Below, piece after piece: positions 1,904 to 51,991 of a DNA stretch of 64,000 nt (its first letter is position 1; each line of letters begins with the position of its first letter). The stretch lies in NCBI GenBank assembly GCA_012518355.1, contig JAAYSP010000072.1, positions 7,644 through 71,643 on the forward strand, given 5' to 3'. Both the position numbers and the translations under genes were made by a program. The notes under the pieces are model-generated. The model was not told the origin of the DNA and ran no database searches. It saw only the letters and a program-made list of their open reading frames with translations. The DNA comes from a candidate division WS1 bacterium (GTDB taxonomy: Bacteria; Armatimonadota; Zipacnadia; Zipacnadales; UBA11051).

Positions 1904-1991
1904 GCCGAGGTGGTGGAATTGGCAGACACGCTAGCTTGAGGGGCTAGTGACCGTCTAGGTTGTGCGGGTTCGAGTCCCGCCCTCGGCACCA
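1904..1991 (+). tRNA. tRNA-Leu (anticodon GAG), long variable arm, CCA encoded
   Basis: Manual fold: acceptor GCCGAGG/CCTCGGC, anticodon loop TTGAGGG, T-loop TTCGAGT; aligns to E. coli Leu tRNA architecture. Confidence 0.9.
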
Positions 1992-2009
1992 GCATTGAGG
2001 ATAGTTTGC

Positions 2010-2085
2010 GGGCGGTTAGCTCAGCTGGAAGAGCGCTTCCCTCACGCGGAAGATGTCAGAGGTTCGAGTCCTCTACCGCCCACCA
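2010..2085 (+). tRNA. tRNA-Val (anticodon CAC), CCA encoded
   Basis: Cloverleaf: acceptor GGGCGGT/ACCGCCC, anticodon stem CTTCC/GGAAG with loop CTCACGC, T-loop TTCGAGT. Confidence 0.85.
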
Positions 2086-2088
2086 TAC

Positions 2089-2164
2089 GCGGGAATAGCT
2101 CAGCTGGTAGAGCATCAGCTTCCCAAGCTGAGGGTCGCGGGTTCGAGTCCCGTTTCCCGCTCCA
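2089..2164 (+). tRNA. tRNA-Gly (anticodon CCC), CCA encoded
   Basis: Acceptor GCGGGAA/TTCCCGC, anticodon loop TTCCCAA, T-loop TTCGAGT, discriminator U. Confidence 0.85.
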
Positions 2165-2212
2165 TAGCATGATAAAATTCGGCAGCGCAGTATCCGTTTG
2201 CATGGTTTGCGA

Positions 2213-2288
2213 GCGGGAGTAGCTCAGCTGGTAGAGCGCCACCTTGCCAAGGTGAAAGTCGCGAGTTCGAGTCTCGTCTCCCGCTCCA
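2213..2288 (+). tRNA. tRNA-Gly (anticodon GCC), CCA encoded
   Basis: Acceptor GCGGGAG/CTCCCGC, anticodon loop TTGCCAA, T-loop TTCGAGT. Confidence 0.85.
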
Positions 2289-2297
2289 ATTATTTCA

Positions 2298-2372
2298 GGC
2301 GGCATAGCCAAGAGGTAAGGCAACGGTCTGCAAAACCGTTATTCACCGGTTCGATTCCGGTTGCCGCCTCCA
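2298..2372 (+). tRNA. tRNA-Cys (anticodon GCA), CCA encoded
   Basis: Acceptor GGCGGCA/TGCCGCC, anticodon loop CTGCAAA, T-loop TTCGATT. Confidence 0.85.
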
Positions 2373-2559: not shown

Positions 2560-3798
2560 TTGTACGTGGCGCTCAAAGGAAATGCTCTAATCGGCCAGTC
2601 TGGCGGCCCGACGATAGTGATCAACGCATCCATGGTAGGGGCCATAGAAGCCGCAGAAAGGCATCCCGAAATCGAACACTTCTATGGCGCACTATGCGGA
2701 TTGACTGGTGTTCTGAACGAAGAGATGATAGAGCTGTTTCGTGAAGACGACGATGTCATTCGTCAAATGCGGTATACTCCGTCGGCTGGTCTTGGTACCT
2801 GCCGGCTAAAGCCCAAAGAGTCCGATCTGGAACGCTGCATGGAGGTCTTCAAGGCTCACAACATTCGTTACTTCTTCTATAACGGTGGCAATGATTCACA
2901 GCTTACCTGCCACCTGATCTCTGAATTGGCCAAGGGCAGCGATTGGGAGATGCAGGTCATCGGTATCCCCAAGACCATAGACAACGATCTGGTCATAACC
3001 GACAACTGTCCAGGGTTTGGAAGCGCAGCGCGATATGCCGCATGGGCGGTCCAGTGTGCTGCACGCGACGCCATGGCTTTCGGCAACGTGGAGGTTGTCG
3101 AGGTCATGGGCCGCCATGCCGGATGGCTGACCGGTGCGACCCAGTGTGGGCGGAAAGAGCCCTGGATGGCGCCTCATCTCGTGTACTTGCCTGAGGTGAC
3201 TGTTGATCCTGACAAGTTTATCTCCGACTGCCAGAACGCCTATGACGAACACGGATATCTAGTCGTCGCGGTATCCGAAGGCTTCACGTTTGGTGAAAGC
3301 GAACAAGCCACCACCTCCGAGAAGCTCGACGAATTCGGCCATGCACGTCTGGGCGGAGTCGCTGAAGCCCTCGGTCATCTGATCGAAGAATCCATCGGTG
3401 TGCGAGCCCGCACTGACTGTCTGGGCAATCTGCAGCGTGCCTTTAGCCCATGCATGTCAAAGGTAGACAACGACGAGGCATACGCAGTCGGCGAAGATGC
3501 GGTCAATCGTGCTGTTGCCGGAGAAAATGATGTCATGATCACCATCAAGCGCAAACAGAACGACCCGTTCGAGTTTGAGACAGCGACCACTTCTCTGATG
3601 AGCGTCGCCGACAAGACCAAATTGGTTCCTGACGAGTGGATCAACGCTGACCGCAACGGTGTAACCGACGAGTTCATCGAATACTGCCTGCCCCTACTCA
3701 ACACTCCGGTATCTGATTTGCCGGCAGGACTGCCGCAGTATCCGGTGTTCCAGAAGCATTTTGCTGAACGGAAATTGGGAGAGCACGCGCGAGAGTAG
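2560..3798 (+). CDS. pfp: 6-phosphofructokinase, probably pyrophosphate-dependent type
   Basis: PKTIDND and MGR motifs of the PfkA family; the ATP-PFK GGDGS box reads GGNDS (Asp at the G104-equivalent position, a PPi-PFK hallmark). TTG start after GGAAGGTGA (GTG alternative at 2566). Confidence 0.8.
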   Translation: MYVALKGNALIGQSGGPTIVINASMVGAIEAAERHPEIEHFYGALCGLTGVLNEEMIELFREDDDVIRQMRYTPSAGLGTCRLKPKESDLERCMEVFKAHNIRYFFYNGGNDSQLTCHLISELAKGSDWEMQVIGIPKTIDNDLVITDNCPGFGSAARYAAWAVQCAARDAMAFGNVEVVEVMGRHAGWLTGATQCGRKEPWMAPHLVYLPEVTVDPDKFISDCQNAYDEHGYLVVAVSEGFTFGESEQATTSEKLDEFGHARLGGVAEALGHLIEESIGVRARTDCLGNLQRAFSPCMSKVDNDEAYAVGEDAVNRAVAGENDVMITIKRKQNDPFEFETATTSLMSVADKTKLVPDEWINADRNGVTDEFIEYCLPLLNTPVSDLPAGLPQYPVFQKHFAERKLGEHARE

Positions 3799-3834: not shown

Positions 3835-3870
3835 CAGGCCCCCTCTACGCCGAGGGGGCCTGTTCTGTAT
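3835..3870. terminator. bidirectional intrinsic terminator between convergent genes: 11-bp stem CAGGCCCCCTC/GAGGGGGCCTG, then TTCTGTAT
   Basis: Perfect inverted repeat between pfp stop (3798) and the reverse-strand gene stop (3901). Confidence 0.5.
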
Positions 3871-3900: not shown

Positions 3901-5370
3901 TTACAGATTGTTGGCGAAGTCTAATCCATCAATCAGCCGCAGGGTCAAAGCTTCTACCTCATGGTCGTGAGTGGCTCGAAAGGCCTCATCAGACTGGACG
4001 AACTCCACCAGCGCCTCGCGGAAATACCGTTTGCCGTTCTCATCGCGCATGTTCAGGGCCAGGTACGAAGTGAAACGGAAAAAATCCGCCCTGGGATCGC
4101 GCTTCATTTTGGGATCGTGTGCTATCTGACGGTCATACTCTTCGAGTTGCCGGATGAGCAAGGGTTGTGCCAGTGGCCCGCCCTGGGCGACCTCGTCTCT
4201 GGTTAGCTGCAATACCGCATCAAAAATTCGATCGTATATCTTGCGCCCTTCAGATTCTGCCGACTGGGCGGCAAGCAGTTCCATCAGAAGTTCGAAATAC
4301 ACTCCGCTTATCTTGTATTTCACACTGCCCCCGGCACCAGCCAACACCGCCTCATAAGTGCCCTCGCCTTTGCCACTGTATGGAGTGGTACCTGAGCCTG
4401 AATGTATGGACAGCATTGCGCCGAATACCCCCTGCGCTATCGCATGGTGCTGTTTGACGCGGCTGCGCAGGGCTTCCATATCACCCGTGAAGTCGGCTCG
4501 CTTGGCAAAACCTATATTCGGCGCAAAGTAGTGGCAGGGCAATCCCAGCGCCTTCCATTCGGTCAGGTAGAATAGAGTCTCATGAGGAGAAGTCATCGCC
4601 TCTGTTTCGTCAAGAGATATCTCAAAGCTGAACGGCCTATCGCCAAGCTTCTCCGCGCAATAGCGGTATATGTCTGCGTTGATACGCAGGCTCTCACGGA
4701 ACTTCAGTGCCAGCCGCATAGCCTCCAGAGGGCTAAGCGTAACAGTAACAGGGTCGCCGTAGGCGGCAGGGAAGCTCTGGGGTTGGGCATAGCGCTGTAA
4801 CAGCTCCGCAGCAGCTTGAGCATCGTACTGTTCGGCAAACTCGCTACGAACCTGCTCTTCACCGAGGCGGTCAGCATCGAGCCAGAACAGATCGGAGGTG
4901 TCAGTGGTAAAGCACCCGACCACTCCGGTTTCAGCGGCTTCGTCTATCGCGGCCCAGTTGTACTCGAGTGACGCCTGCAATTCCTCGGGGCTGATATGAT
5001 GGGCCACATGGTGCCCGGCAATTCTCTTCACTGCAGCATCTGCTGAACCTATAACTATCAGGTGGTCCGCCTCGATTTCGGCTGTCACGCCCGCCTTTGT
5101 CGCTTCACTGGCACCCATCGTCATGTATTTGCGGATAGAAGTCCCGGTATGCCCTCGAGTGATCTCCCATGCTCCAGGTTTGGCGTCAATCACCTCTTCA
5201 GGAGCGGTTTCACGCCCAAACGAAAGCATCAAGCCAGTCGCGGTATTGCGCTGGCTGCACGCTGATAGGATGCCTGGCAAAAACAGTTCAGGGATGCGGA
5301 TGCCGATGGCAGGATGGCGTCTCACTCCCAGACATGCGGGGCCTGCAGGATACTCACTTTGTCCGGACAT
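3901..5370 (-). CDS. conserved hypothetical protein (about 489 aa); very tentatively UxaE-like tagaturonate/fructuronate epimerase family
   Basis: Long ORF; start moved to the ATG at 5370, which has a GGGAGG SD (the first in-frame start at 5412 has none). Family assignment is from memory of size and TIM-barrel-like composition only. Confidence 0.55.
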   Translation of the reverse strand: MSGQSEYPAGPACLGVRRHPAIGIRIPELFLPGILSACSQRNTATGLMLSFGRETAPEEVIDAKPGAWEITRGHTGTSIRKYMTMGASEATKAGVTAEIEADHLIVIGSADAAVKRIAGHHVAHHISPEELQASLEYNWAAIDEAAETGVVGCFTTDTSDLFWLDADRLGEEQVRSEFAEQYDAQAAAELLQRYAQPQSFPAAYGDPVTVTLSPLEAMRLALKFRESLRINADIYRYCAEKLGDRPFSFEISLDETEAMTSPHETLFYLTEWKALGLPCHYFAPNIGFAKRADFTGDMEALRSRVKQHHAIAQGVFGAMLSIHSGSGTTPYSGKGEGTYEAVLAGAGGSVKYKISGVYFELLMELLAAQSAESEGRKIYDRIFDAVLQLTRDEVAQGGPLAQPLLIRQLEEYDRQIAHDPKMKRDPRADFFRFTSYLALNMRDENGKRYFREALVEFVQSDEAFRATHDHEVEALTLRLIDGLDFANNL

Positions 5371-5472
5371 GAATACATACAACCTCCCAAGTCTACGTAG
5401 TGTGCAGCTCATGATCTTGCGATAGACGATAGGATTCGCCGCGCATGAAGGGCGGCTCCCGTCGAGAAGATG

Positions 5473-6258
5473 CTATGACGTCTTCACATGCTGCATAAGC
5501 AGCGCATGGCATTCCGGTGATGCCGCGACCATACAGGGCCCAGGCGCCCGATAGTCCCGGTTTTCCAGGTCAAAAAGCGATTGTCCATGGATATCGGTCA
5601 CCAGTGCCCCGACCTCCTTCAGTAGCACCATGCTTGCCCCCACGTCCCACACGTACCAGTGATTGCACACAGTCCCCACTGCGTTACCTGCGGCGACGAG
5701 TGCCATGGAGTAGGCGGTGCTGCCAGTGATGCGGTATTTCACCTGCGCTGAAAAATCCCAATGCGGTATATTGGGGGAAGATATCAATAGCAGATCGTTG
5801 CGTGCAAGCGTATCAGTGCGTCGCACGCTGACTCTTGTGCCATCACAGTATGCCCCCTCCCCATCGGACGCCCAAAAGGTCTGGTCAAGGCAGGGCATGT
5901 GCAGTACCCCCAGAAAGGGCTTGCCTTTATAAAACAGTCCGACTGAAATCCCCCAGATGGGTACTCCAGATGCGAAGTTGTTCGTCCCATCAATCGGATC
6001 GAGTAGCCACAAGAAGGGCGACTGTTCCATGCCTCCGGAGCCGTCTTCTTCGCCAAAAACCATATGATGCGGGTACTGGTCGAGGATGCGTTTTCGGATG
6101 TACTGCTCTACTCGCCTGTCCGCCTCTGTCACTAGAGTCCCATCGTCCTTCTCGCGGCCTTCGACCTGCCCGAACATACCCAGGGCGATCAGGCCAGCCT
6201 CTGCAGTGATATCCTGGACCATTTGCAGAGCGGACAGCATATCGAAATCTCGTGTCAC
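5473..6258 (-). CDS. inositol monophosphatase family protein (IMPase/SuhB/HisN-like)
   Basis: WLLDPIDGT and WD motifs of the IMPase fold; GTG start after GGGAGA SD. Confidence 0.8.
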   Translation of the reverse strand: MTRDFDMLSALQMVQDITAEAGLIALGMFGQVEGREKDDGTLVTEADRRVEQYIRKRILDQYPHHMVFGEEDGSGGMEQSPFLWLLDPIDGTNNFASGVPIWGISVGLFYKGKPFLGVLHMPCLDQTFWASDGEGAYCDGTRVSVRRTDTLARNDLLLISSPNIPHWDFSAQVKYRITGSTAYSMALVAAGNAVGTVCNHWYVWDVGASMVLLKEVGALVTDIHGQSLFDLENRDYRAPGPCMVAASPECHALLMQHVKTS

Positions 6259-6291: not shown

Positions 6292-7053
6292 CTATTCGAT
6301 GTCGCCCATACGTAGTGGCTTGTCCGGTTTCCATGAGGGTACTGAGACAATTTGCCAGATGCTGGTATAACGTGTACGTTCCTGAAAGACTGCATCTCCG
6401 GTCTGCACTTTCGAGGCAGTGCTAGACCAAGCGCGAACGCGGTATGCGCCACGCGGCAACTCAAACTCAATTGAATTATAGGGCGGTATCGCCTTAGTAA
6501 CACGGGTTGGCCCCTCAAAACTGAAGTACATGGCTTTGCCAGAGGCGTTGGTCATCCTGATCAGCGGCGTGATTTGTCCGCTCGGCCGCGCCTCGAACAT
6601 GGTCCCGATGCCCGAAGGCACAGGTAAGCCTGAGCCGATTGCCGGTGAGTTTCGTCCCGCAGGGAGACGCGCCCCGGCTGGCGCCTTTGCAGCCGGCCGT
6701 TGGGGGAGAACGCTGGTCAGGGCACCTCCGTCCAACGGCACCATGCTTACATCCTGGGCGGTCGGCCGCAGCCACCAGTGCCACAACGCTGCTGCCTCCA
6801 GGCTTAGCAGCAGCACCCCTGCCAGCAGTAGCCACACCAGAGGCACGACAGCCGGTCTACTCTTCCGATAGAGCGGAGCTTTGCCGCCGTGTCCCCGCTC
6901 CGAGGGCCCAACCTGTTGTTGCTGGAGTTGCTTCGGCGGTGGCTGACCAATCGCAGCGCCGCACCGCCGGCAGGCCGTGTTTAACCTCGTCATATAGTAA
7001 CCGCAATGCGGACAAGCTTGTGACCATTTCATGTCATCACCCATCCCACGCAT
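6292..7053 (-). CDS. hypothetical membrane-anchored protein with N-terminal zinc-ribbon (CPHCG...CRRCG), Pro/Gln-rich linker, one TM helix and an extracytoplasmic C-terminal domain
   Basis: ORF between cimA and the IMPase gene on the same strand; two CxxC pairs; hydrophobic segment VVPLVWLLLAGVLLLSL. Confidence 0.5.
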   Translation of the reverse strand: MRGMGDDMKWSQACPHCGYYMTRLNTACRRCGAAIGQPPPKQLQQQQVGPSERGHGGKAPLYRKSRPAVVPLVWLLLAGVLLLSLEAAALWHWWLRPTAQDVSMVPLDGGALTSVLPQRPAAKAPAGARLPAGRNSPAIGSGLPVPSGIGTMFEARPSGQITPLIRMTNASGKAMYFSFEGPTRVTKAIPPYNSIEFELPRGAYRVRAWSSTASKVQTGDAVFQERTRYTSIWQIVSVPSWKPDKPLRMGDIE

Positions 7054-7077: not shown

Positions 7078-8649
7078 TCAGCCTCCATTTTTCAACAGAC
7101 CATAGATCAGCGAATCGACTACTGCCTGCCAACTGGCCTCGATGATGTTTTCGTGGACACCGACAGTGCCCCAGCTATCCTCAGCGTCGGCGGTCTGCAC
7201 GAGCACACGTACCGCCGCTTCAGTGCCTTCATCAGCGCGCAGCACTCTGACCTTGTAGTCCACAAGACTCAGCTCTTCTAGTTTCGGGAACAGTTCCGTC
7301 AATGCCTTTCGCAGTGCATTGTCGAGCGCATTCACTGGCCCGGTACCCTCGCCGGCGGTGTGTACTTCTCTGTCTCCGACGGCTACCTTGAGAGTAGCCT
7401 CAGAGTACGGTTCGCTGCCCTCATCAGCTTTGTAGACGGTAATCCGATAGCCGTGCAGGTCAAATGGAGGTAGCAGGCCCTCCTTCAGGCGACGTGCCAG
7501 AAGCTCAAATGTAGCCTCCGCTGCATCAAATTCGTACCCGCTCTTCTCTAGATTCTTGACCTGCTCCAGTACTGTGGCCACCAGGGGGTCGTCACGCTGA
7601 AGATCAGGCCAGATACGTTGGAGCTTGTGCACGATGGTGGAACTTCCGGAGTAGTCCGAAACCAGGATGCGCCGACTGTTGCCCACAGTTTCAGGCTCTA
7701 CATGCTCAAACGATGAGGGTTCTTTCAGCACCGCGTTGACATGCATGCCTCCCTTATGGGCAAAAGCAGATGCCCCGACGTACGGCTGTCGAGTGTCGGC
7801 AGGGAGATTGGCGATCTCGCTCACGAAATGCGCCAACTCGGTTATCTCGGTCAACTGGCCTTCTGGTAGGCAAACTGTGTCCATCTTGAGCTCGAGGTTG
7901 GGGATGATGACACACAGGTTCGCGTTGCCTGACCGCTCGCCGTAGCCGTTGATGGTGCCTTGCACCTGGCTGCAGCCCGCCTGGACTGCGGCCATACTGT
8001 TGGCCACGGCCAGACCGGCATCGTTGTGACAGTGTATGCCAAGTGCAATCTGGCACTCTGCGGCTACCGTCTCGACGATCTCACGTATCTCATCGGGCAG
8101 TGAGCCACCGTTGGTGTCACACAGCACCAGTGCATCCGCACCGCCTCGCTGTGCGGCTCGCAAGCACTCCAGAGCATATGCCGCATCAGCTTTGTAGCCG
8201 TCAAAGAAGTGCTCAGCATCGAACATCACCTCTTCACGATGAGCCTTGAGGTAGGCGATGCTGTCCTCGATCATCTGCAGGTTTTCATCCAGAGAGACAC
8301 GCAGCACTTCAGTGGCATGGAAGTCCCAGCTTTTGCCGAAAATGGTGATGACTGGTGCGCGGCTTGCCAGCAAATCCTGAAGTTGGCTGTCGTCTTCGAC
8401 GTTGATGTTGCCTCGTCGAGTGCTGCCAAATGCCGTGATGCGCGCGGTTTGCCAGGACATATCAGCGGCACGCTGGAAGAATTCGCGGTCACGAGGATTT
8501 GTCTCGTTTGGCCAGCCGCCCTCGATGTATGCAACGCCCACTTGATCCAGCTTCTGCGCGATGCGCAGTTTATCCTCTACGCTGAATGCCACACCTTCTG
8601 CCTGGCAGCCATCGCGGAGAGTGGTATCATATACGTCAACTCTTTTCAT
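7078..8649 (-). CDS. cimA: (R)-citramalate synthase, Geobacter type (LeuA/HCS superfamily)
   Basis: MKRVDVYDTTLRDGCQAEGVAFSVEDKLRIAQKLDQVGVAYIEGGWP N-terminus and about 520 aa length match GSU1798-type CimA; AGGAGG SD 8 nt upstream of the ATG at 8649. Confidence 0.85.
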   Translation of the reverse strand: MKRVDVYDTTLRDGCQAEGVAFSVEDKLRIAQKLDQVGVAYIEGGWPNETNPRDREFFQRAADMSWQTARITAFGSTRRGNINVEDDSQLQDLLASRAPVITIFGKSWDFHATEVLRVSLDENLQMIEDSIAYLKAHREEVMFDAEHFFDGYKADAAYALECLRAAQRGGADALVLCDTNGGSLPDEIREIVETVAAECQIALGIHCHNDAGLAVANSMAAVQAGCSQVQGTINGYGERSGNANLCVIIPNLELKMDTVCLPEGQLTEITELAHFVSEIANLPADTRQPYVGASAFAHKGGMHVNAVLKEPSSFEHVEPETVGNSRRILVSDYSGSSTIVHKLQRIWPDLQRDDPLVATVLEQVKNLEKSGYEFDAAEATFELLARRLKEGLLPPFDLHGYRITVYKADEGSEPYSEATLKVAVGDREVHTAGEGTGPVNALDNALRKALTELFPKLEELSLVDYKVRVLRADEGTEAAVRVLVQTADAEDSWGTVGVHENIIEASWQAVVDSLIYGLLKNGG

Positions 8650-8701
8650 TTGTCTTTCCTCCTGGATACGCCGGGGCCTTTTCGGCTGCGATGTCACCGC
8701 T

Positions 8702-8743
8702 GAAACACAAAACTCCGTCCCTGTTCAATTCAGAGACGGAGTC
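8702..8743 (-). terminator. intrinsic terminator of the T-box leader: stem ACTCCGTC/GACGGAGT followed by UUUUGUGUUU
   Basis: Inverted repeat plus U-tract read on the reverse strand, 52 nt upstream of the cimA ATG. Confidence 0.7.
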
Positions 8744-9018
8744 ATCCGCGGTACCACCCTGGTTACTCCCCCCCGAAAAGGAGGAGCCACTTTGCCAACA
8801 CGGGCCACCTGCGGCCGATGTCGTCTTCAGGATAACGGTAGAAGCTCCGACGAAGTCTACTCGGCCGCCTGTTGTCGGCCAGGCCTTTCGATTCGCAGCT
8901 CGAGGGTGATATTCAGATCGGACTTACCTGCCCGCTCTCACCATCCGGGCTCGCTGTCCGGTATAAACCGACCCTACTTGTCCCCTTCACAGCTTTTACG
9001 TGTCACGACTTAAATTGT
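8702..9018 (-). promoter_or_regulatory. T-box riboswitch leader (tRNA-sensing transcription attenuator) upstream of cimA; candidate specifier AUC-A (Ile) at complement 8908-8910 (CUC-G Leu alternative at 8902-8904)
   Basis: Canonical T-box sequence AACCAGGGTGGTACCGCGG (complement 8746-8764) immediately 5' of and overlapping an intrinsic terminator; about 315-nt leader length; amino-acid biosynthesis gene downstream. Confidence 0.75.
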
Positions 9019-9024
9019 GGGCTC

Positions 9025-9053
9025 AGTATAACATGAAATCGGCAGCAGAGCAA
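9025..9053 (-). promoter_or_regulatory. promoter for T-box leader/cimA: -35 TTGCTC (9053-9048), 17-nt spacer, -10 TATACT (9030-9025)
   Basis: Hexamer match and spacing; places TSS near 9018. Confidence 0.4.
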
Positions 9054-9070
9054 CACCACGATCACCCCAG

Positions 9071-9250
9071 TACTGTTTAACTCGCACACATACTGTCTCG
9101 CTCAGCAGACAGTGCTTCACTCACACACGTACTACCTCACCCATACAGGTACTGCTTCACCTGCCTGGGCATCGCTTCATCCACACAAGTACTGCTTCAC
9201 TCAAACACGTATTGTCTCGCTCAGCCAGGCAGTGCTTCACTTGTACAGGT
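9071..9250. repeat. nine tandem degenerate 20-bp direct repeats (plus-strand consensus aCTGcTTCAC tCAcACAcGT), two units containing TGTCTCGCTCAGC
   Basis: Units start every 20 nt from 9071 to 9231; array begins 6 bp after the upstream gene stop and ends 17 bp from the -35 of the T-box promoter. Confidence 0.75.
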
Positions 9251-13292: not shown

Positions 13293-15008
13293 TTGACATA
13301 CATGAGTAGCCGGAGCATCTGGACAGTGGCCCTTCTGCTAATGCTGACATACTGCACGTGTGTCAGCATGGTTGTTGCTGACACGAATACCGATGGTATC
13401 AGCTTCCAGGAAGGGTTGCCCGCCGAACTGGTGATCGACACCAACCTTCCGTTAGACGACCAACTGGGACAGCTCGACGCGATGGTGCGTTGGGGCGAGG
13501 AAAACGAACCCAAGCCGAAAGGCGGGCTACTGTCTGGCATCAAGAAAACGTTTGCTGGTCCTGAAGGACCGACGCCGACAACAGTCAGCGCGCTGCGCGA
13601 CAATCTCGGTGAGATACAGGGCGTCCAGGTGACTATAACCGGCATTTACACTGCCTCTGAGGATGGAGCCAGGGGGATATTGACGACTGCAGAGGGCACT
13701 GTCCCGGTGACCCTTGGCGGCGGCGTACAGCCGGAAGGCTTCGGTGAAAGCCCGCTTGGCGGGGTTCCGGCTGTCGTGGCCGGTCTGGTCGAAGTCGTCA
13801 ACACTCCACCCGAGCCTTCCATTCGCGTTACCAGGCTCACTCCTGCCGGCTGGCTGGCCACCCTGCGCATCGCGCGCATCCACGAGATTCAGGGCGATTT
13901 TAAGTCCGCACAGGCGGCCTACACGCAGGCCGCTGACTCAGCCCACACAGCAGGGGCCCTGTTCAGCGGCTTTGCCACAGTCCGTGCCGCCGAACTGGCT
14001 ATGGAACAACTGGCAGATCCTGCCCAGGCAGAGAAGCTCTACAACAAGGCATGGACCCAATGCGGGACGCTCGATAGCCAGGGGCACTGCGCCTATTTGA
14101 CGTGGCAGCTAAAGGACGGAGTGTGGGAGGAGAAGCCCCTGCGCAACGTAGTGGGGCCGGTGCTCGATAGCCTCAATCGGGAACGCTTCTGGTACCGGGT
14201 TGTTGCAGGCTTCGTAGCACTGGGCGGCAGCAACCCCGGTATCGGTGTCATCCTGCTCGCCTTTGCCGTCCGCCTGATGATTTGGCCATTGACGCGCAAG
14301 CAGCTCGAGTCAGCTCAGTCCATGCAAGCCCTGCAGCCGCAGATGAAGGCACTGCAGGAAAAGTATGTTGACGACAAACAGAAATTCCAGGAGGAATTCT
14401 GGAAGCTGTGTCAGAGCCGGGGCGTCAATCCTCTGGGGGGCTGTCTTCCGATGCTGATCCAGTTCCCCATCCTGATCATGCTGTATCGTGGTATCCGTGC
14501 CTACATCTGGCATTTCGACAACGCATCGTTCCTGTGGATCCACAACCTGGCTGCTCCTGACATGATTCTACTCGTGGCATACACCATAAGCATGATCATG
14601 TTCCAGAAGGCCACACAACGGATGCAACCTGCCGCGGCGATGAATCCTCAGCAAGCGCAGCAGCAGCAGATGATGACCTGGATGATGCCTATCATGTTCT
14701 TCTTTTTCTTCCAGAGTTTCCCTGCCGCCTTCCTGTTGTACTGGCTGTCGAGTAACGTGTTCTACTTTGGCGAGCAGTACGTACACAGAACGATGCGCAG
14801 CAAGTCTGCCGCAACCTGTGACGACGCTGCGGCCGATACGCCCAAGCCTGCGGGTGGATTGGTCTCAGGGATGGTCAAGCTACTATCTCCAGAAGATAAC
14901 TCCGAACAAAAGGAAGCTGAGACACAGCGGACCAGTTACGCGGACCGCAAGGCAGCCGAAGCGGGCAAGAAGGGCCGTAAGATGGACGCCAGGAAGAAAC
15001 GTCGGTAA
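13293..15008 (+). CDS. yidC: membrane protein insertase YidC with large N-terminal extracytoplasmic domain
   Basis: C-terminal 60-kDa insertase core (RLMIWPLTRKQ...GCLPMLIQFPILIMLY); TTG start 13293 (ATG alternative 13302). Confidence 0.85.
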   Translation: MTYMSSRSIWTVALLLMLTYCTCVSMVVADTNTDGISFQEGLPAELVIDTNLPLDDQLGQLDAMVRWGEENEPKPKGGLLSGIKKTFAGPEGPTPTTVSALRDNLGEIQGVQVTITGIYTASEDGARGILTTAEGTVPVTLGGGVQPEGFGESPLGGVPAVVAGLVEVVNTPPEPSIRVTRLTPAGWLATLRIARIHEIQGDFKSAQAAYTQAADSAHTAGALFSGFATVRAAELAMEQLADPAQAEKLYNKAWTQCGTLDSQGHCAYLTWQLKDGVWEEKPLRNVVGPVLDSLNRERFWYRVVAGFVALGGSNPGIGVILLAFAVRLMIWPLTRKQLESAQSMQALQPQMKALQEKYVDDKQKFQEEFWKLCQSRGVNPLGGCLPMLIQFPILIMLYRGIRAYIWHFDNASFLWIHNLAAPDMILLVAYTISMIMFQKATQRMQPAAAMNPQQAQQQQMMTWMMPIMFFFFFQSFPAAFLLYWLSSNVFYFGEQYVHRTMRSKSAATCDDAAADTPKPAGGLVSGMVKLLSPEDNSEQKEAETQRTSYADRKAAEAGKKGRKMDARKKRR

Positions 15009-15073
15009 TGAAACCTGCGCATTAGGCAGTGCTTTCGCTACCATACCATAGCTGCACAAAGAGGGGGCCTTCC

Positions 15074-15814
15074 ATGAGATCGGTGGAGGTCAGCGATAAG
15101 ACTATAGAGGCGGCAAAAGAGGCTGCGCTTGAGCAACTCGGAGTGCCTGAAGACCGGGTGCAATTCGAGGTGCTCAGAAGCCCTGACACAGCGGCCGGAT
15201 TGCCCAGTGGCGCAGAGTATGTCATCAGAGCTACGATAGCCGAAGATGCTGACAGCCCGGAGGGCACATCAATGACAGACAAGGCCTCGCCGGCCCAAAC
15301 TGACGGCTTTCCCGAAGCCCCGCAGATTAGTGACCGCGACAGTCGGCTGCAACAGATCGCCGAACGCGCCTGTCAGCTAACTACAGACATTATCGGCCTC
15401 ATGGGTGCTGCCGATGGAAAGGTCACACTCACCGGAACTACCGACCGCGAGATCGCTTTGGACATCTCAACAGAAAATGCAGGTATGATCATCGGCCGTC
15501 ATGGCGATACTCTAGATGCACTGCAGCTTATCGTCGCCATAGGGGCGAACAAGGGCTTCATCGAGGGAGCACGGGTCATACTCGACACAGAAGGATATCG
15601 AAGCCGCCACGTGGAGTCGCTGCAGGATATGGCTCGATCTTATGCAGACAGAGCCAGGGAGAAAGATCAGGAGCTTGTTATCGAAGGCCTCAATGCATAC
15701 GAACGGCGTATCATCCACATGACATTGCGCGATGACCCCGATGTGGAGACTTACAGCGAGGGTGACGGCAACGACCGCGTGCTCGTCATCTCCCCTACCG
15801 CCACCGCCAGCTAG
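15074..15814 (+). CDS. jag: RNA-binding protein Jag/KhpB (Jag_N-KH-R3H)
   Basis: Jag_N-like N-terminus, GxxG KH region (MIIGRHGDTLDALQ) and R3H-like C-terminus; start at the ATG at 15074 after AAAGAGGGGG. Confidence 0.8.
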   Translation: MRSVEVSDKTIEAAKEAALEQLGVPEDRVQFEVLRSPDTAAGLPSGAEYVIRATIAEDADSPEGTSMTDKASPAQTDGFPEAPQISDRDSRLQQIAERACQLTTDIIGLMGAADGKVTLTGTTDREIALDISTENAGMIIGRHGDTLDALQLIVAIGANKGFIEGARVILDTEGYRSRHVESLQDMARSYADRAREKDQELVIEGLNAYERRIIHMTLRDDPDVETYSEGDGNDRVLVISPTATAS

Positions 15815-22358: not shown

Positions 22359-23327
22359 TCAAACATCCAACAATCCAAGATTGCTACGAGCTTCTTTTGC
22401 AGCCTCACGAACCCAAAAGTGAGTGTCTTCCTCGGCAGAAGCCAGTGCCTGCGCTACCCTGGACTGGATCGCTTCGGGTACGATGCTAACTTTCCCCAAG
22501 GACTGCATCGCGGCGATGCGGACATCACCAACACTATCGCCGCATGCGAGAAGCATACCTTCAAGTGCTGTGAGTTGCTCGCTTTCCTTTTCATTTCTAG
22601 CAGCCAAATCACCGAGAGCATACACCGCGGCCACACGCACTGATGGAGCTATTTCTACGGCCTCGTCAACGGCCTGAGCCAGGCCTTCTACAGCCTCCGA
22701 CGACTGCAGGTAGCCGAGAGCCACTGCTGCGGCCAATCGCAGTGTCTGAGTTGTATCCTCTACCTCAGCCGGTGCTTCGTCCGCCTCTTCATCAGATATC
22801 GCGGGAGCAGGTACTGGTGGACGGGCGGCAAGTACTGCAAGCAACGGGATGGTTGCCTCTGCCGCCTCAAATGTACCTAAAGTGGTCGCGGCCCCTTCAC
22901 GCACTAGCAGGTCTTCCTGCTCATCTGACAGTACTGTTATCAATGTCGGTATTGCCTGTTTTGCACCAAGTCTGCCCAGTGCAAGTGTCACGTCTTTTCG
23001 GACGTACTCATCTTTATCGTTCTGGAGCAGCGGTGTCAACAGTTGTCCATGTTCAGGGCCGCCACACATCGCGATGAGCATGACGGCATTAGAGCGCACC
23101 AGGGGGTTAGCGTTGGTCAGCAGCGTCTCAACCATGGATACAACCCGCTCACCCTGGCCCGACAGAGCCTCGATGGCGCGGGTAGCCGCTGCGGTATCGT
23201 CTCCATCGAGAGCCTGTACGTGCTCTCGTATCTTGGCTGCACCCTGGTAAGTTGTGACGGCATAGACTCCGCCTAACACGATAATCAGGACCGCAATTGC
23301 TGTTATACTTCGCGTGTTCACTGGCAA
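22359..23327 (-). CDS. HEAT-repeat (PBS lyase-like) protein with N-terminal TM anchor and acidic linker
   Basis: Repeated LGxLG/AVxALG motifs; TTG start; 72-bp gap to the downstream lipoprotein gene. Confidence 0.7.
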   Translation of the reverse strand: MPVNTRSITAIAVLIIVLGGVYAVTTYQGAAKIREHVQALDGDDTAAATRAIEALSGQGERVVSMVETLLTNANPLVRSNAVMLIAMCGGPEHGQLLTPLLQNDKDEYVRKDVTLALGRLGAKQAIPTLITVLSDEQEDLLVREGAATTLGTFEAAEATIPLLAVLAARPPVPAPAISDEEADEAPAEVEDTTQTLRLAAAVALGYLQSSEAVEGLAQAVDEAVEIAPSVRVAAVYALGDLAARNEKESEQLTALEGMLLACGDSVGDVRIAAMQSLGKVSIVPEAIQSRVAQALASAEEDTHFWVREAAKEARSNLGLLDV

Positions 23328-23400
23328 TCAATCCTTGCTTAGGCCGGGCCGACGTATAGTAGCGCCCGAGTTCGGAATCCGTATGGTAGACTACAAACGA

Positions 23401-26028
23401 CTATCTCTTCTGGGTGCGAATACGCTCAGTCAACTGTTCGGCACGGGCTGCTTTTGCCGGGTCAGGTTTCTCCTGCTCGTGCATATGCTTGATGGCCTTC
23501 AGCGACCTATCGTCCCCTATACACTGCATGCTGATAGCCAGCCACATGCGGTAGTCGGCATCCTGCGTGCGATTACGAGTGTCTAGCACTGCCTCGGTAG
23601 CCTGACGCCCGATGCCCCCAATGGTGGCGGCTATCCACGGCTTGAGGCTATCGGATACTTTATCGAGTTCTTCCATCAGTGTTTTGACGGGGCCACTGCC
23701 CATCATAGACAGCGCGATCGCAGCCTGCATGCGTATATCTTCACCGCTACCAGGCTCTGTCAGGATTTCCACGAGCAACTTGCCGGCAGGTGACAGTTCG
23801 GATGAGACTTGCTGCTCCATTTCTTCCTGACTGGATTTCATCCCAATAAGCGCCACTGACTGGGCGGCACCGGCAGCAAATTCTCCGCCGGCCTTCAGGA
23901 GAGCACCTAGGACAGGGATCCCCTCTGCGTGTCCGATCCGGCCGAGACCTCGAATTGCATAGTGACGAACCGATGGCGAGGCTGTCTCGTCGCCGGCGGC
24001 AGCAGTCAACAGCTGGGCGACACTCCCCCGGATCCGGTCGTCAAATTGTGTTTCTCGGACTCCACCGATAGCAGTCTCGGCTGTCTGAACGGTCGATTCG
24101 CTTTCGAACACCAAAGATATCGCAGCGCGGTACTTCAAGTCGGTATCGGCACTGTCGAGCAATTTGGCTAGCTCATCGCGTGGGTGTCCAGACCGCCAGT
24201 TGGCGAGGGCATCCATTGCCATATCTCGAACTGCAGGCGAGGATGACTGCAGGGCCTTGACAAGCAACTCTACACCATCGGCGGAGGCGATCTTGCTGAC
24301 TGCCTTGACGACAGCTATGGCCAGGCCAGGCTGCACGTCGGTGTAGACAGATTTGAGAGTGGTGATGGCTTGTGGGTTACGTGTGTGTCCAAGGGCTGCC
24401 ACTGCAGCGACACGTGTAGGCACCGGTTCAGCGCTATTGCCTGCAAGCTCAGTCAACTGCGCGAGTGCATCCGTACCTAGCGCGCCGAGAGCGATAGCGG
24501 CCCAGTCAGCTTTGGTCGGATTAGTCGGCGCCTGCTTGAGCGCGTTGATCAGAGCGGGAATTGCCGGCTTACCAATTCGCACCAGTGCCTGTTCCGCCAT
24601 ATGAGCGACACGTTCATCGGTACTGCCCAAAGCTTCAGTGAGCACCGGGACCGCAGCTGGACCACACTTGGCCAGTGCATCACGGGCGGCGTAGTACACC
24701 CGCCAGTCACCATCGTGCAGAGCGCGGGCTAACGGCGCAGCGATTACGGCGGCATGGGAAGAGAGGTTGTGTCCGCTTTGTGCTCTCAGCGCTTCTGCTG
24801 CTGCCCGGCGTACTGCCGCGTCAGCGGCTCCCAGTGCCTGAGCAAGGGGCGGGACAGGGGTGGAGCCGGCAACGTTGGAAAGGGCGCGGATTGCTAGTAG
24901 TTGCGCTTCGCTCTGTCCGCTAGCGATTACTGTAGCAAGAGCCGGTACGGCAGCAGGGCCAAGTCTCTCAAGAGCGCTGACCAACTGGCTGGATATACCA
25001 GCGCGGCTATGGAGCAGGGCATGGGTCAGCGGACCAGCAGCGGCTGGATCGCCCAGTCTACCCAGTGCTTCGGCCACAGCGCCACGGACCTCGGAGTGCT
25101 GCCCGGTATCCTGCAAAGTGGCAATCAGCGGGCCAGCAGCTCCGTTTACACGGCCCACTTCGCCGAGACGTCCCAGGCTGAGTGCAGCCTGACGTCGGAC
25201 GGCATAGCTTCCGTCATTGCGAAGCCGGTCCAGCAACGGTGGCAACACCTGTAGCGCGCCCTCCTCACCTATCGGAGAAGCAACAGTCTGGTCGGCTATA
25301 ACGCCTAATAGAGACGTCCCCACGCCTCGAATGTCGGTGTTTGGCGATGTCAGCAGTTCAGTGATGATGGCAGGAATGGCTATGGCATTCATGGCCCTGA
25401 GAGCTGCTTGAGCGGCGGCCCGCTCACGCAAGTAGGCGTCAGCGTCCTGATCACCGCTTGGGCCTGTCTTCTGGATCACTGTGATGACGGCAGCCCGCGC
25501 AGGCTCCCCAATACCTCCAAGAATCGCACTTGCGCCAGCCCTGGCGAAATCATCCCACGCCGACAGGACGGGGAGAAGATAAGGAACCGCCGGCTCTCCG
25601 ATTGCGATCAGCACGGGATTCACTCCAGCACGGGTGTTCGCATCCTTGTCCTTGAGCGCTTCGATCAAGGTAAAGATGGCCGAATTGCCGGCTTGTGTGA
25701 GAATTTCGGTGATGCGCGCTTGAACCGGGGCATCAACGAATTTGAAAACCGTGAGCAGTTGATGCCATGCCTGGGGCGTGCTTATCTGTGCCGCGGCGGC
25801 TATCGCACGATCTTGCACCCAACGGGGCTGGTCCTTGATTGCCTCTGCTAGCGTGCGACTACGTATAAGCTCATCTACGGCACGAACCTGCTGGGTGGGC
25901 GTGCCGGTGGCCAGTTGTTCCTGTAGCCTGGCCATCCGTTGGCTTCGGCCGACCCCCCACACGAGAAGACAGGCGAGGGCGCCGATGATGATTACCCAGT
26001 TAATCTGCCGCCGGGTGCTTTCGTCCAC
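23401..26028 (-). CDS. large HEAT-repeat (PBS lyase-like) protein with N-terminal TM anchor (about 875 aa, more than 20 repeats)
   Basis: Pervasive AxxALGxxG repeats; GTG start at 26028 placed 9 nt after a GAGGAG SD (the ORF-track TTG at 26037 abuts the SD). Confidence 0.75.
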   Translation of the reverse strand: MDESTRRQINWVIIIGALACLLVWGVGRSQRMARLQEQLATGTPTQQVRAVDELIRSRTLAEAIKDQPRWVQDRAIAAAAQISTPQAWHQLLTVFKFVDAPVQARITEILTQAGNSAIFTLIEALKDKDANTRAGVNPVLIAIGEPAVPYLLPVLSAWDDFARAGASAILGGIGEPARAAVITVIQKTGPSGDQDADAYLRERAAAQAALRAMNAIAIPAIITELLTSPNTDIRGVGTSLLGVIADQTVASPIGEEGALQVLPPLLDRLRNDGSYAVRRQAALSLGRLGEVGRVNGAAGPLIATLQDTGQHSEVRGAVAEALGRLGDPAAAGPLTHALLHSRAGISSQLVSALERLGPAAVPALATVIASGQSEAQLLAIRALSNVAGSTPVPPLAQALGAADAAVRRAAAEALRAQSGHNLSSHAAVIAAPLARALHDGDWRVYYAARDALAKCGPAAVPVLTEALGSTDERVAHMAEQALVRIGKPAIPALINALKQAPTNPTKADWAAIALGALGTDALAQLTELAGNSAEPVPTRVAAVAALGHTRNPQAITTLKSVYTDVQPGLAIAVVKAVSKIASADGVELLVKALQSSSPAVRDMAMDALANWRSGHPRDELAKLLDSADTDLKYRAAISLVFESESTVQTAETAIGGVRETQFDDRIRGSVAQLLTAAAGDETASPSVRHYAIRGLGRIGHAEGIPVLGALLKAGGEFAAGAAQSVALIGMKSSQEEMEQQVSSELSPAGKLLVEILTEPGSGEDIRMQAAIALSMMGSGPVKTLMEELDKVSDSLKPWIAATIGGIGRQATEAVLDTRNRTQDADYRMWLAISMQCIGDDRSLKAIKHMHEQEKPDPAKAARAEQLTERIRTQKR

Positions 26029-27335
26029 TGATGTCAACTCCTCAGAAGCAGCGGAGCGCCCCGGCCTATCCGGGGCCTCCCAATAGTGCCGATCATAGAC
26101 TTACGCGTGAACTGGATTACTCTTCCAGCCACCTAATCGTGCAATTCCGCAACGACGCGCCGGAATCCTTCTCCGTTTTGCGCCGTATACCTTCTCCTGA
26201 ATCAGAAAATCCCAAAAAGCAAAAACAGTAGATCACCTGACCGTCTCACCGGCTATCACGGACTGTCGAAGGCTGGCGCCATTATATGCTCTCACGGGCC
26301 TGCTGACAAGAGTGTCTGTCATAATTGCCAGGGTGGAACTGGCGATGAGGCATCTCCAGACCGGGTCACAAGTGAGCCAGTAGCGTTCTTCACAACAATC
26401 AACGCTATCCGACAATGCTCTGCTAACACGCCATCACCTGATGGTGTCGACGGACGCCCGAGCACTGTTTCTTCCAACACTGCTTCAACGCAGAATTCCC
26501 AAAAGCAGCGCGCCTGGCGCGCCTCACGGGCCATTTGTTGGCGAGTAGCGTAAAATCTACTGCATCGCGAAAGGGTGCTTTGCTGATGCCATCGCAAAAT
26601 CTGCGCATATACTGCTACAGCTACTGCGTATATAGGATATACGGTAGATATATCGTAGGCACCAGCCGGGGGATAGCCACGAAGCGCCTTACCGGGGCGC
26701 AATGACGGGAGCCCACTATCCGGAGGCTGCGCCGATCATCTGCCTCTGTGAGAATACAACTGAAAATAGTTGGCAGTAGTGGCTAATGCTTACTTGGATA
26801 GCGCTATTTGTGTTACAATTGAGCGACAGTTCGGGCACTTGTGTCCTACAGCACGGATCGTCTTTGTGCTGTCCATGCTCGGCAAGATGCTTACCGCCGG
26901 CCCGGCTCCTGCTACGGCCTAGACTCTGGGCGATTGTACTGAACTCTATAGTGTTCTTGCACAGGTCGCCAAAACCATAGAGAGTGTGGGGCAATCGTAG
27001 CTAGAACCGGGCCTGTGTTGTGAAGTAGTGTGCTAGATATGTTGAGTGCCCAACAGAATAAGCCAGCACCAATACGCCTGACCTGATGGCCATCAGCAGC
27101 CTGTTCGACAGCAGATGTTATCGCTGTTACCAGTTACCAGGAGCACGCAGCAACTTTTTCTGATGACAGGTGAAGTCGGATCTGAACCGACAGCAATTGG
27201 CAATTGTACCTGGTGCGATAACTGGTTGGGCAACTGATTGATTTATTTATGAGTATCGACACTGAACAGCATACACGCCACAAAACCCGCACGAGTTCCA
27301 TTCACCGGCGCAACCGCCTGATGAGGGAGCACAGC

Positions 27336-51912: not shown

Positions 51913-51991
51913 TGGCGGGGCTGACGGGACTCGAACCCGCGACTTCCACCTTGACAGGGTGGCACTCTAAAACCGACTGAGCTACAGCCCC
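51913..51991 (-). tRNA. tRNA-Asp (anticodon GTC), CCA encoded
   Basis: Acceptor GGGGCTG/CAGCCCC, anticodon loop CTGTCAA, T-loop TTCGAGT; close to E. coli tRNA-Asp. Confidence 0.85.

Follow-up and report, generated by a model that had tools for sequence, protein, structure and literature searches.

A predicted tRNA-Ile-specific T-box riboswitch upstream of a stand-alone citramalate synthase gene in an apparently Armatimonadota genome

That T-boxes control branched-chain amino acid genes is well established. Here we describe a leader RNA on a 64-kb stretch of DNA (the whole of which we call the window) that is very probably a canonical class I, or transcriptional, T-box riboswitch, specific for tRNA-Ile and controlling cimA, which encodes citramalate synthase, the enzyme of the first committed step in the citramalate (pyruvate) route to isoleucine. 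Like the T-boxes of Bacillota, such as those of Bacillus subtilis tyrS, glyQS and ilvBNC-leuABCD, the leader has Stems I, II, IIA/B and III, a 14-nt T-box and a UGGN bulge. It also has the same competing antiterminator and terminator, and the default termination that is relieved in those systems by uncharged cognate tRNA is predicted for this leader as well. It differs from the Bacillota T-boxes in its host, which is apparently a member of the Armatimonadota, in its GC-rich sequence (59% GC), and in carrying a 19-nt insertion in Stem II and an extra hairpin. Furthermore, the B. subtilis ilv-leu leader reads leucine (PMC12452182), whereas the leader in the window reads isoleucine. The mechanism is an ordinary one, and what is less familiar is confined to the phylum of the host and to a T-box-cimA unit that stands alone; our understanding of how T-boxes work is unchanged.

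Other comparable elements are found outside the Bacillota. The leuA T-boxes of Geobacter and Pelobacter (PMC2494555) resemble the one described here in being isolated, in lying outside the Bacillota, and in preceding a LeuA-family synthase that heads a branched-chain pathway. The gene is reported as a 2-isopropylmalate synthase in those organisms, whereas the gene in the window encodes a predicted citramalate synthase. Their specifier is presumably that for leucine. Actinobacterial ileS T-boxes share isoleucine specificity and a place outside the Bacillota with our leader (TBDB preprint), but they act on translation by sequestering the Shine-Dalgarno sequence, have a reduced Stem I, carry the specifier in the loop of a terminal hairpin, and target a tRNA synthetase gene, whereas the element in the window has a full Stem I, an intrinsic terminator and a biosynthetic target gene. 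Two Bacillota-like loci from our own search, L047 and L140, are like the window in having an AUC-A specifier and a TIGR00977-type cimA ortholog behind the T-box; in both, however, cimA lies inside a branched-chain amino acid operon, whereas in the window and its Armatimonadota-like relatives it stands alone among unrelated genes. A literature search that did not extend to the large T-box catalogues found no link between a T-box and citramalate synthase or cimA, and we make no claim to a first description. The search also found nothing specific on T-boxes in Armatimonadetes or Armatimonadota, and the phylum is absent from the T-box phylum lists found in the literature; an earlier description in the 2008 survey of Vitreschak et al., in RegPrecise or in TBDB is possible.

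The identity of the leader is carried first by its match to RF00230, the Rfam T-box leader family. The covariance model matches 8999..8729 (features lie on the minus strand unless otherwise marked) over its full length (8729..8999, model positions 1-219 of 219) with 103.8 bits and an E-value of 7.7e-22, above the curated gathering score of 93 bits, and this is the sole non-tRNA Rfam match across the window. The original prediction had proposed a T-box from the sequence and recommended such a scan; this significant, full-length match and the covariation of Stem I and of the switch strand, described below, bear the proposal out. Because every feature of sequence and structure that can be checked in silico was found, we consider that the leader is a true member of RF00230 and not a mere analog.

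The gene behind the leader, cimA (7078..8649), encodes a protein of 523 aa, and public gene calls place its start at the same position. Pfam assigns the protein the domains HMGL-like (PF00682), HCS_D2 (PF22617) and, as the C-terminal LeuA allosteric domain, LeuA_dimer (PF08502), and it scores 716.5 bits against the NCBIfam equivalog TIGR00977, for which the cutoff is 450. The predicted activity is therefore that of a citramalate synthase, which would form citramalate from pyruvate and acetyl-CoA. This family is hard to annotate by homology, as LeuA, NifV and homocitrate synthase models all match at E < 1e-59, and the regulated enzyme might accordingly be another member of the LeuA/homocitrate family, with the isoleucine T-box acting on a different pathway step. 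We regard this as very unlikely, since TIGR00977 is the only model whose curated cutoff is passed, whereas all LeuA and homocitrate synthase models fall far below their own (the best LeuA model reaches 299.5 bits against a cutoff of 517). In addition, an isoleucine specifier fits an isoleucine-committed enzyme, and the cimA orthologs of L047 and L140 have ilv and leu genes around them. The choice of citramalate synthase as the regulated gene in the original prediction thus stands. In turn, the isoleucine T-box provides independent in silico evidence that this TIGR00977 enzyme serves isoleucine synthesis and that the citramalate route is used in this uncultured lineage. Because CimA keeps the LeuA-type C-terminal domain, a second, allosteric layer of control may exist, and the isoleucine pathway is probably controlled both at the gene level, by the T-box, and at the enzyme level, by feedback.

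To place the leader among its relatives, we searched for CimA homologs in one genome per species and in metagenome contigs, and fetched 160 cimA loci. The closest CimA in the one-genome-per-species set, with 79% identity, comes from L001, a metagenome-assembled genome (MAG) labeled "uncultured Armatimonadia". Synteny with L001 spans the whole neighborhood: a heparinase-II/III-like gene (64%), the T-box, cimA, and the genes for a 253-aa protein (37%), an IMPase-family protein (57%) and a 503-aa protein (69%). Further relatives with 68-71% CimA identity lie on metagenome contigs (L081, L082 and L083), and L140 is a more distant, low-GC locus with 53%. A motif scan placed a T-box core directly upstream of cimA in L001, L083, L140, L081 and L082, that is, in 5 of the 160 loci, which indicates that the T-box-cimA arrangement is confined by lineage and does not characterize cimA in general. 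The T-boxes of L001, L083 and L140 score 100.6, 104.8 and 126.1 bits against RF00230. Other motif matches (L053, L055, L058, L089, L102 and others) were set aside as being below Rfam gathering or not upstream of cimA. An exact-protein look-up identified nine metagenome contigs carrying the same CimA as the window; the identical contig is present in samples ERZ778607, ERZ773357 and JGI 3300002898. In the four upstream regions that were read, the leader is unchanged, and two substitutions near 9411-9416 in L162 are the sole differences, so that these copies add no variation to the comparison.

The switch itself is well preserved. The conserved T-box sequence AACCAGGGUGGUACCGCGG (8746..8764) falls on invariant alignment columns; it is read at 8764..8746 as AACCAGGGTGGTACCGCGG, in the form quoted in the original prediction and at the place given there. 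The 14-nt T-box is AGGGUGGUACCGCGG, and its 7-nt bulge, UGGUACC (8756..8750), opens with UGGU (8756..8753), which is complementary to the 3' ACCA of tRNA. The bulge separates helix A1 (AGGG/CUCU) from helix A2 (GCGGA/UCCGU) in the antiterminator (8732..8760), where A2 covaries with the strand shared with the terminator. The antiterminator folds only when the 3' arm of the terminator is removed, with -8.3 to -9.5 kcal/mol, and both A1 and A2 then form, which answers the concern raised beforehand that it might be unable to pair. An independent pattern scan and folding both identified the intrinsic terminator (8703..8743), in which a 13-bp stem with a 7-nt loop (arms GACUCCGUCUCUG and CAGGGACGGAGUU, 8743..8711) is followed by the U-tract UUUUGUGUUU (8712..8703). 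Its fold of -24.3 kcal/mol (z = -4.15) was as stable in none of 200 shuffles and is about 15 kcal/mol more stable than the antiterminator, as expected for a default-terminating switch. Since the 3' strand of the antiterminator, UCCGUCUCU, is also the core of the terminator 5' arm, the two structures are mutually exclusive, and the competing terminator that had been proposed is indeed present.

In a comparison of the window with four relatives, changes in the shared switch strand are matched by changes in both of its exclusive partners. At one position (s1), the window and L001 have a U that is paired with A in both A2 and the terminator, and L083 and L081 have a C that is paired with G in both. 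At another (s2), L083 has a U that forms a G-U pair in the antiterminator and a U-A pair in the terminator. The extension found only in the terminator retains its pairing as well, with GAC/GUU in the window, GCG/CGC in L083 and AGG/CCU in L081. The cimA Shine-Dalgarno sequence, AGGAGG (8658..8663), lies about 45 nt beyond the terminator, is in neither alternative helix and is not sequestered. Thus, the expression platform would be transcriptional.

Upstream of the leader, the promoter that had been proposed, TTGCTC-17-TATACT, is present: a -35 element TTGCTC (9053..9048) is followed, after a 17-nt spacer, by TATACT (9030..9025) with TGn directly 5' of it, so that the extended -10 reads TGT-TATACT (9025..9033). 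Phylogenetic footprinting supports this assignment, as five related leaders share an invariant TTG in the -35 element (9048..9053) and an invariant TAnAnT in the -10 element at identical spacing, and four of them also keep the TG extension. From the promoter we infer a transcription start near 9018, and the distance from there to the end of the U-tract at 8703 fits the predicted leader length of about 315 nt. A reading in which the leader is a decaying, non-functional remnant, or controls translation rather than termination, has some observations on its side: the score exceeds gathering by only about 11 bits, the RNA carries large insertions that the consensus lacks, its -35 element is weak, and interruptions break the U-tract. 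Nevertheless, relatives in which CimA is only 68-79% identical keep every element, with compensatory changes, and a remnant would not maintain three-way covariation. Translational control is further opposed by the Shine-Dalgarno sequence, which lies 45 nt past the terminator and outside both helices, unlike in the translational isoleucine T-boxes of Actinobacteria. We therefore judge this possibility highly improbable and retain the reading of a functional, transcriptional T-box.

Stem I (8898..8993), which would contact the tRNA, was assigned from the Rfam alignment, the consensus fold and pair counts. The Rfam alignment places in it a K-turn, formed by UGUGAA (8991..8986) with CGAGC (8902..8898), an S-turn AGUA (8977..8974) opposite GAA in the specifier loop, the AG bulge ACAGCGAG (8957..8950) and the distal loop GGAUGGUGAGAG (8946..8935), and UGUGAA/CGAGC, AGUA/GAA, AGCGA and GGUGAGA all fall on conserved RF00230 positions. 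A consensus fold of six sequences predicts 26 pairs, 17 of which are kept through two-sided changes. When the alignment was scored against a fixed structure, 96.7% of cells were paired and double changes were seen in 17 of 25 pairs. None of 500 shuffles reached any of five pairing measures, and sliding the partners by 1-3 columns lowered pairing to 35-46%. Folding Stem I had been recommended in order to confirm the specifier loop and the distal platform; both the specifier loop and the distal loop align to the model, and the helices covary.

The RF00230 alignment leaves eight positions unpaired before the closing helix CCCU, G-A-A-U-A-U-C-A, within which the specifier segment GAAUAUCA is located at 8914..8907. 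A canonical specifier is a triplet followed by a purine, immediately before the closing helix. By this rule the specifier (8907..8910) is AUC (8910..8908) with A8907 as the 3' purine, corresponding to tRNA-Ile with anticodon GAU. AUC-A occupies the specifier columns of the family and is invariant in all six cimA-adjacent T-boxes (the window, L001, L083, L081, L082 and L140), as is the longer AUCACC, in agreement with the isoleucine specificity first proposed. The same model columns hold AUC-A in the T-box of L047, which heads ilvN-ilvC-cimA-leuC-leuD, and, as a positive control for the register, CUC-A in that of L067, which is followed by a leuA paralog.

The original prediction had also named a CUC-G just downstream as a leucine alternative, by which the T-box would be leucine-specific and cimA leucine-responsive. 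CUC does occur at 8905..8903, 4 nt downstream of AUC, and T-boxes on leuA-type genes exist, both in L067, which reads CUC, and in front of leuA in Geobacter and Pelobacter (PMC2494555). However, the C-U of this triplet is part of the basal helix CCCU, which pairs with GGGG, and the following C-G-A forms the 3' side of the K-turn, outside the specifier loop. No loop-closing helix lies behind the triplet to satisfy the purine rule, and the triplet is unconserved, being CCC in L083, CUU in L081 and L082, and UUU in L140. Because of this position and lack of conservation, we reject CUC as a usable specifier and consider the leucine reading barely credible. Scarcely conceivable, too, is a shifted register in which UAU (Tyr) or UCA (Ser) is read: both triplets overlap AUC in GAAUAUCACC, and UCA is as invariant as AUC, but the base 5' of AUC varies (U/A/U/G/G/A in the window, L001, L083, L081, L082 and L140), so that the -1 frame is inconsistent (UAU, AAU and GAU) and excluded, and the canonical rule gives AUC-A, the leuA-linked T-box of L067 has CUC-A in the same columns, and a serine or tyrosine signal would be senseless for citramalate synthase.

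Several observations weigh against the assignment of this leader as a functional isoleucine T-box. The U-tract is broken by two G residues. The -35 element is weak, fitting only 3 of 6 consensus positions, and for this reason a strict sigma-70 consensus scan did not report the leader promoter. The T-boxes of L081 and L082, although full-length, score 61.1 and 59.5 bits, below Rfam gathering, because of large insertions; they were missed at the gathering threshold and recovered at an E-value threshold. The minimum free energy of the whole leader is unremarkable (z = -1.24), and the corresponding fold does not reproduce the canonical Stem I in context; as whole-leader folding is uninformative, we relied on the family model and on comparative folds. 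The thermodynamic fold of isolated Stem I pairs the U and C of the specifier with G-A across the loop; the specifier is unpaired in the family model and in the consensus fold. The covariation statistics, drawn from six related sequences, may be inflated by shared ancestry. Finally, no tRNA-Ile gene is present in the 64-kb window.

The proposed mechanism follows established T-box biology, from which binding of the tRNA and the response to its charging are taken. Transcription would begin at about 9018 from the extended -10 promoter, Stem I would fold with its distal platform docking the tRNA elbow by stacking, and AUC (8910..8908) would pair with the GAU anticodon of tRNA-Ile. If the tRNA-Ile is uncharged, its free 3' ACCA would pair with the UGGU bulge (8756..8753), which would match a tRNA ending in A73-CCA, and this pairing would stabilize the weak antiterminator (8760..8732) and let RNA polymerase read through into cimA. 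If the tRNA-Ile is charged, the antiterminator would go unstabilized, the shared strand UCCGUCUCU would instead form the terminator, and transcription would stop at about 8703.

The region between Stem I and the switch follows the family pattern, with additions. Stem II (8851..8896), assigned from the Rfam alignment with compensatory pairs in the consensus fold, contains an S-turn (GAAA...AGUAG) and a lineage-specific loop insertion of 19 nt at 8866..8884. The Stem IIA/B pseudoknot (8825..8849), supported by the Rfam alignment and the consensus fold, consists of IIA, CGG...CCG with the F-box CCGUUA (8849..8833), and IIB, in which the loop CUUC is paired with a downstream GAAG (8828..8825); the IIB helix covaries, with CUUC/GAAG in the window versus CUCCC/GGGAG in L083. 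An insertion of 30 nt, absent from the model, separates Stem IIA/B from Stem III and forms an extra hairpin (8799..8820) outside the Rfam consensus. Each of the five Armatimonadota-like leaders keeps this hairpin, some pairing GGCC with GGCC and others GGUC with GACC, and in L081 the site has grown to about 65 nt. L081 and L082 have further insertions within Stem I. Stem III (8765..8788) is recovered by both the Rfam alignment and the minimum-free-energy fold.

The host appears to belong to the Armatimonadota, a reading that rests on one MAG label and on synteny. The original prediction had taken the T-box as a hint of Chloroflexota, Deinococcota, Actinobacteria or delta-proteobacteria; the nearest relative is instead the Armatimonadia MAG, with CimA 79% identical and five neighbors collinear. 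A full-length transcriptional T-box is thereby placed in an Armatimonadota-like genome. Armatimonadota groups with the Terrabacteria. Given this placement, a T-box in the phylum would fit the view that T-boxes arose in the common ancestor of Firmicutes, Actinobacteria, Chloroflexi and Deinococcus-Thermus (TBDB preprint). Armatimonadetes genomes are largely non-operonic for biosynthetic pathways (PMC4959169), which fits the occurrence of cimA alone among unrelated neighbors and suggests that, in a phylum with such genomes, one gene at the entry to a pathway can have a cis-regulator to itself.

Other cimA loci from the search carry T-boxes in different settings. L067 (1108..4557, a Bacillota MAG) has a leucine (CUC) T-box followed by the leuA paralog and then cimA. 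In L047 (985..6534, a Vallitaleaceae MAG of the Bacillota), an isoleucine (AUC) T-box heads ilvN-ilvC-cimA-leuC-leuD, an instance elsewhere of the same isoleucine T-box/cimA regulatory logic. Thus, cimA has been wired to different tRNA signals in different lineages. The metagenome locus L140 (380..5999, GC 39%) has the order T-box(Ile, AUC)-cimA-leuB-pheA, in which prephenate dehydratase (pheA) would be an unusual passenger behind an isoleucine T-box; a divergent thiamine pyrophosphate (TPP) enzyme resembling the acetolactate synthase large subunit is also present.

Three genes follow cimA on the same strand, after gaps of 24, 33 and 60 nt in which a pattern scan found no terminator-like site: those for a 253-aa zinc-ribbon/membrane protein without a family match (7053..6292), a 261-aa IMPase-family phosphatase (6258..5473) and a 503-aa UxaE-like protein with a weak family match (5412..3901). 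The original prediction had suggested their co-regulation. Read-through into them is plausible given the short, terminator-free gaps, but the arrangement is found only in L001, and the case for counting them as part of the regulated unit is weak. Behind cimA in the other loci are a SAM (S-adenosylmethionine) methyltransferase gene (L083), fpg (L081) and leuB-pheA (L140). Because these three genes follow cimA only in L001, the T-box belongs to cimA and not to a functional operon, and any co-regulation of the neighbors would be incidental. A more far-reaching idea, which we consider doubtful, is that the Armatimonadota have kept or acquired a stand-alone Ile-T-box-cimA module and that, in the lineage of the window, read-through also puts the three unrelated downstream genes under the control of tRNA-Ile charging; if this were true, it would be a T-box regulon reaching beyond amino acid metabolism.

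The proteins encoded by these genes have features of their own. The 253-aa protein (6292..7053) has an N-terminal zinc-ribbon-like motif (CPHCG...CRRCG), a Gln-rich linker, one hydrophobic segment and a C-terminal domain, and is 37% identical to its L001 counterpart, compared with 57-79% for its neighbors. The best NCBIfam match of the IMPase-family protein is histidinol-phosphatase HisN, at 153 bits and well under the cutoff of 275, and the 503-aa protein resembles tagaturonate epimerase UxaE only weakly and in part, with a match of 75.9 bits over residues 155-341. A GC-rich 11-bp hairpin at 3835..3862 (+), between the convergent PPi-phosphofructokinase gene (2560..3798, +) and the gene for the 503-aa protein, may be a bidirectional terminator that ends the cimA-side transcription unit.

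On the other side of the leader, about nine degenerate 20-nt units (GTGAAGCAGTACnTGTnTGG, read on the minus strand; TRF periods 20 and 60) occupy 9069..9240 and take up the spacer that separates the heparinase-like open reading frame (stop at 9263) from the -35 element of the T-box promoter. The array is local to this interval and identical in the four metagenome copies, and the syntenic L001 lacks it. It may serve to bind a regulator, 20 nt being about two helical turns, or be a neutral minisatellite.

The window contains further features apart from the cimA locus. Five tRNA genes form a cluster at 1904..2372 (+), in the order Leu(GAG)-Val(CAC)-Gly(CCC)-Gly(GCC)-Cys(GCA), and a tRNA-Asp(GTC) gene lies at 51913..51991 (-). 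A yidC-jag/EloR gene pair is located at 13293..15814 (+). In many bacteria the yidC-jag pair adjoins rnpA-rpmH-dnaA, and by this analogy the window may lie near the replication origin. At 22359..26037 (-), adjacent genes encode proteins of 322 and 878 aa with sub-threshold matches to CpcE, CpcF and NblB (HEAT-repeat phycobilin lyase/NblB models), and these are probably generic HEAT-repeat proteins.

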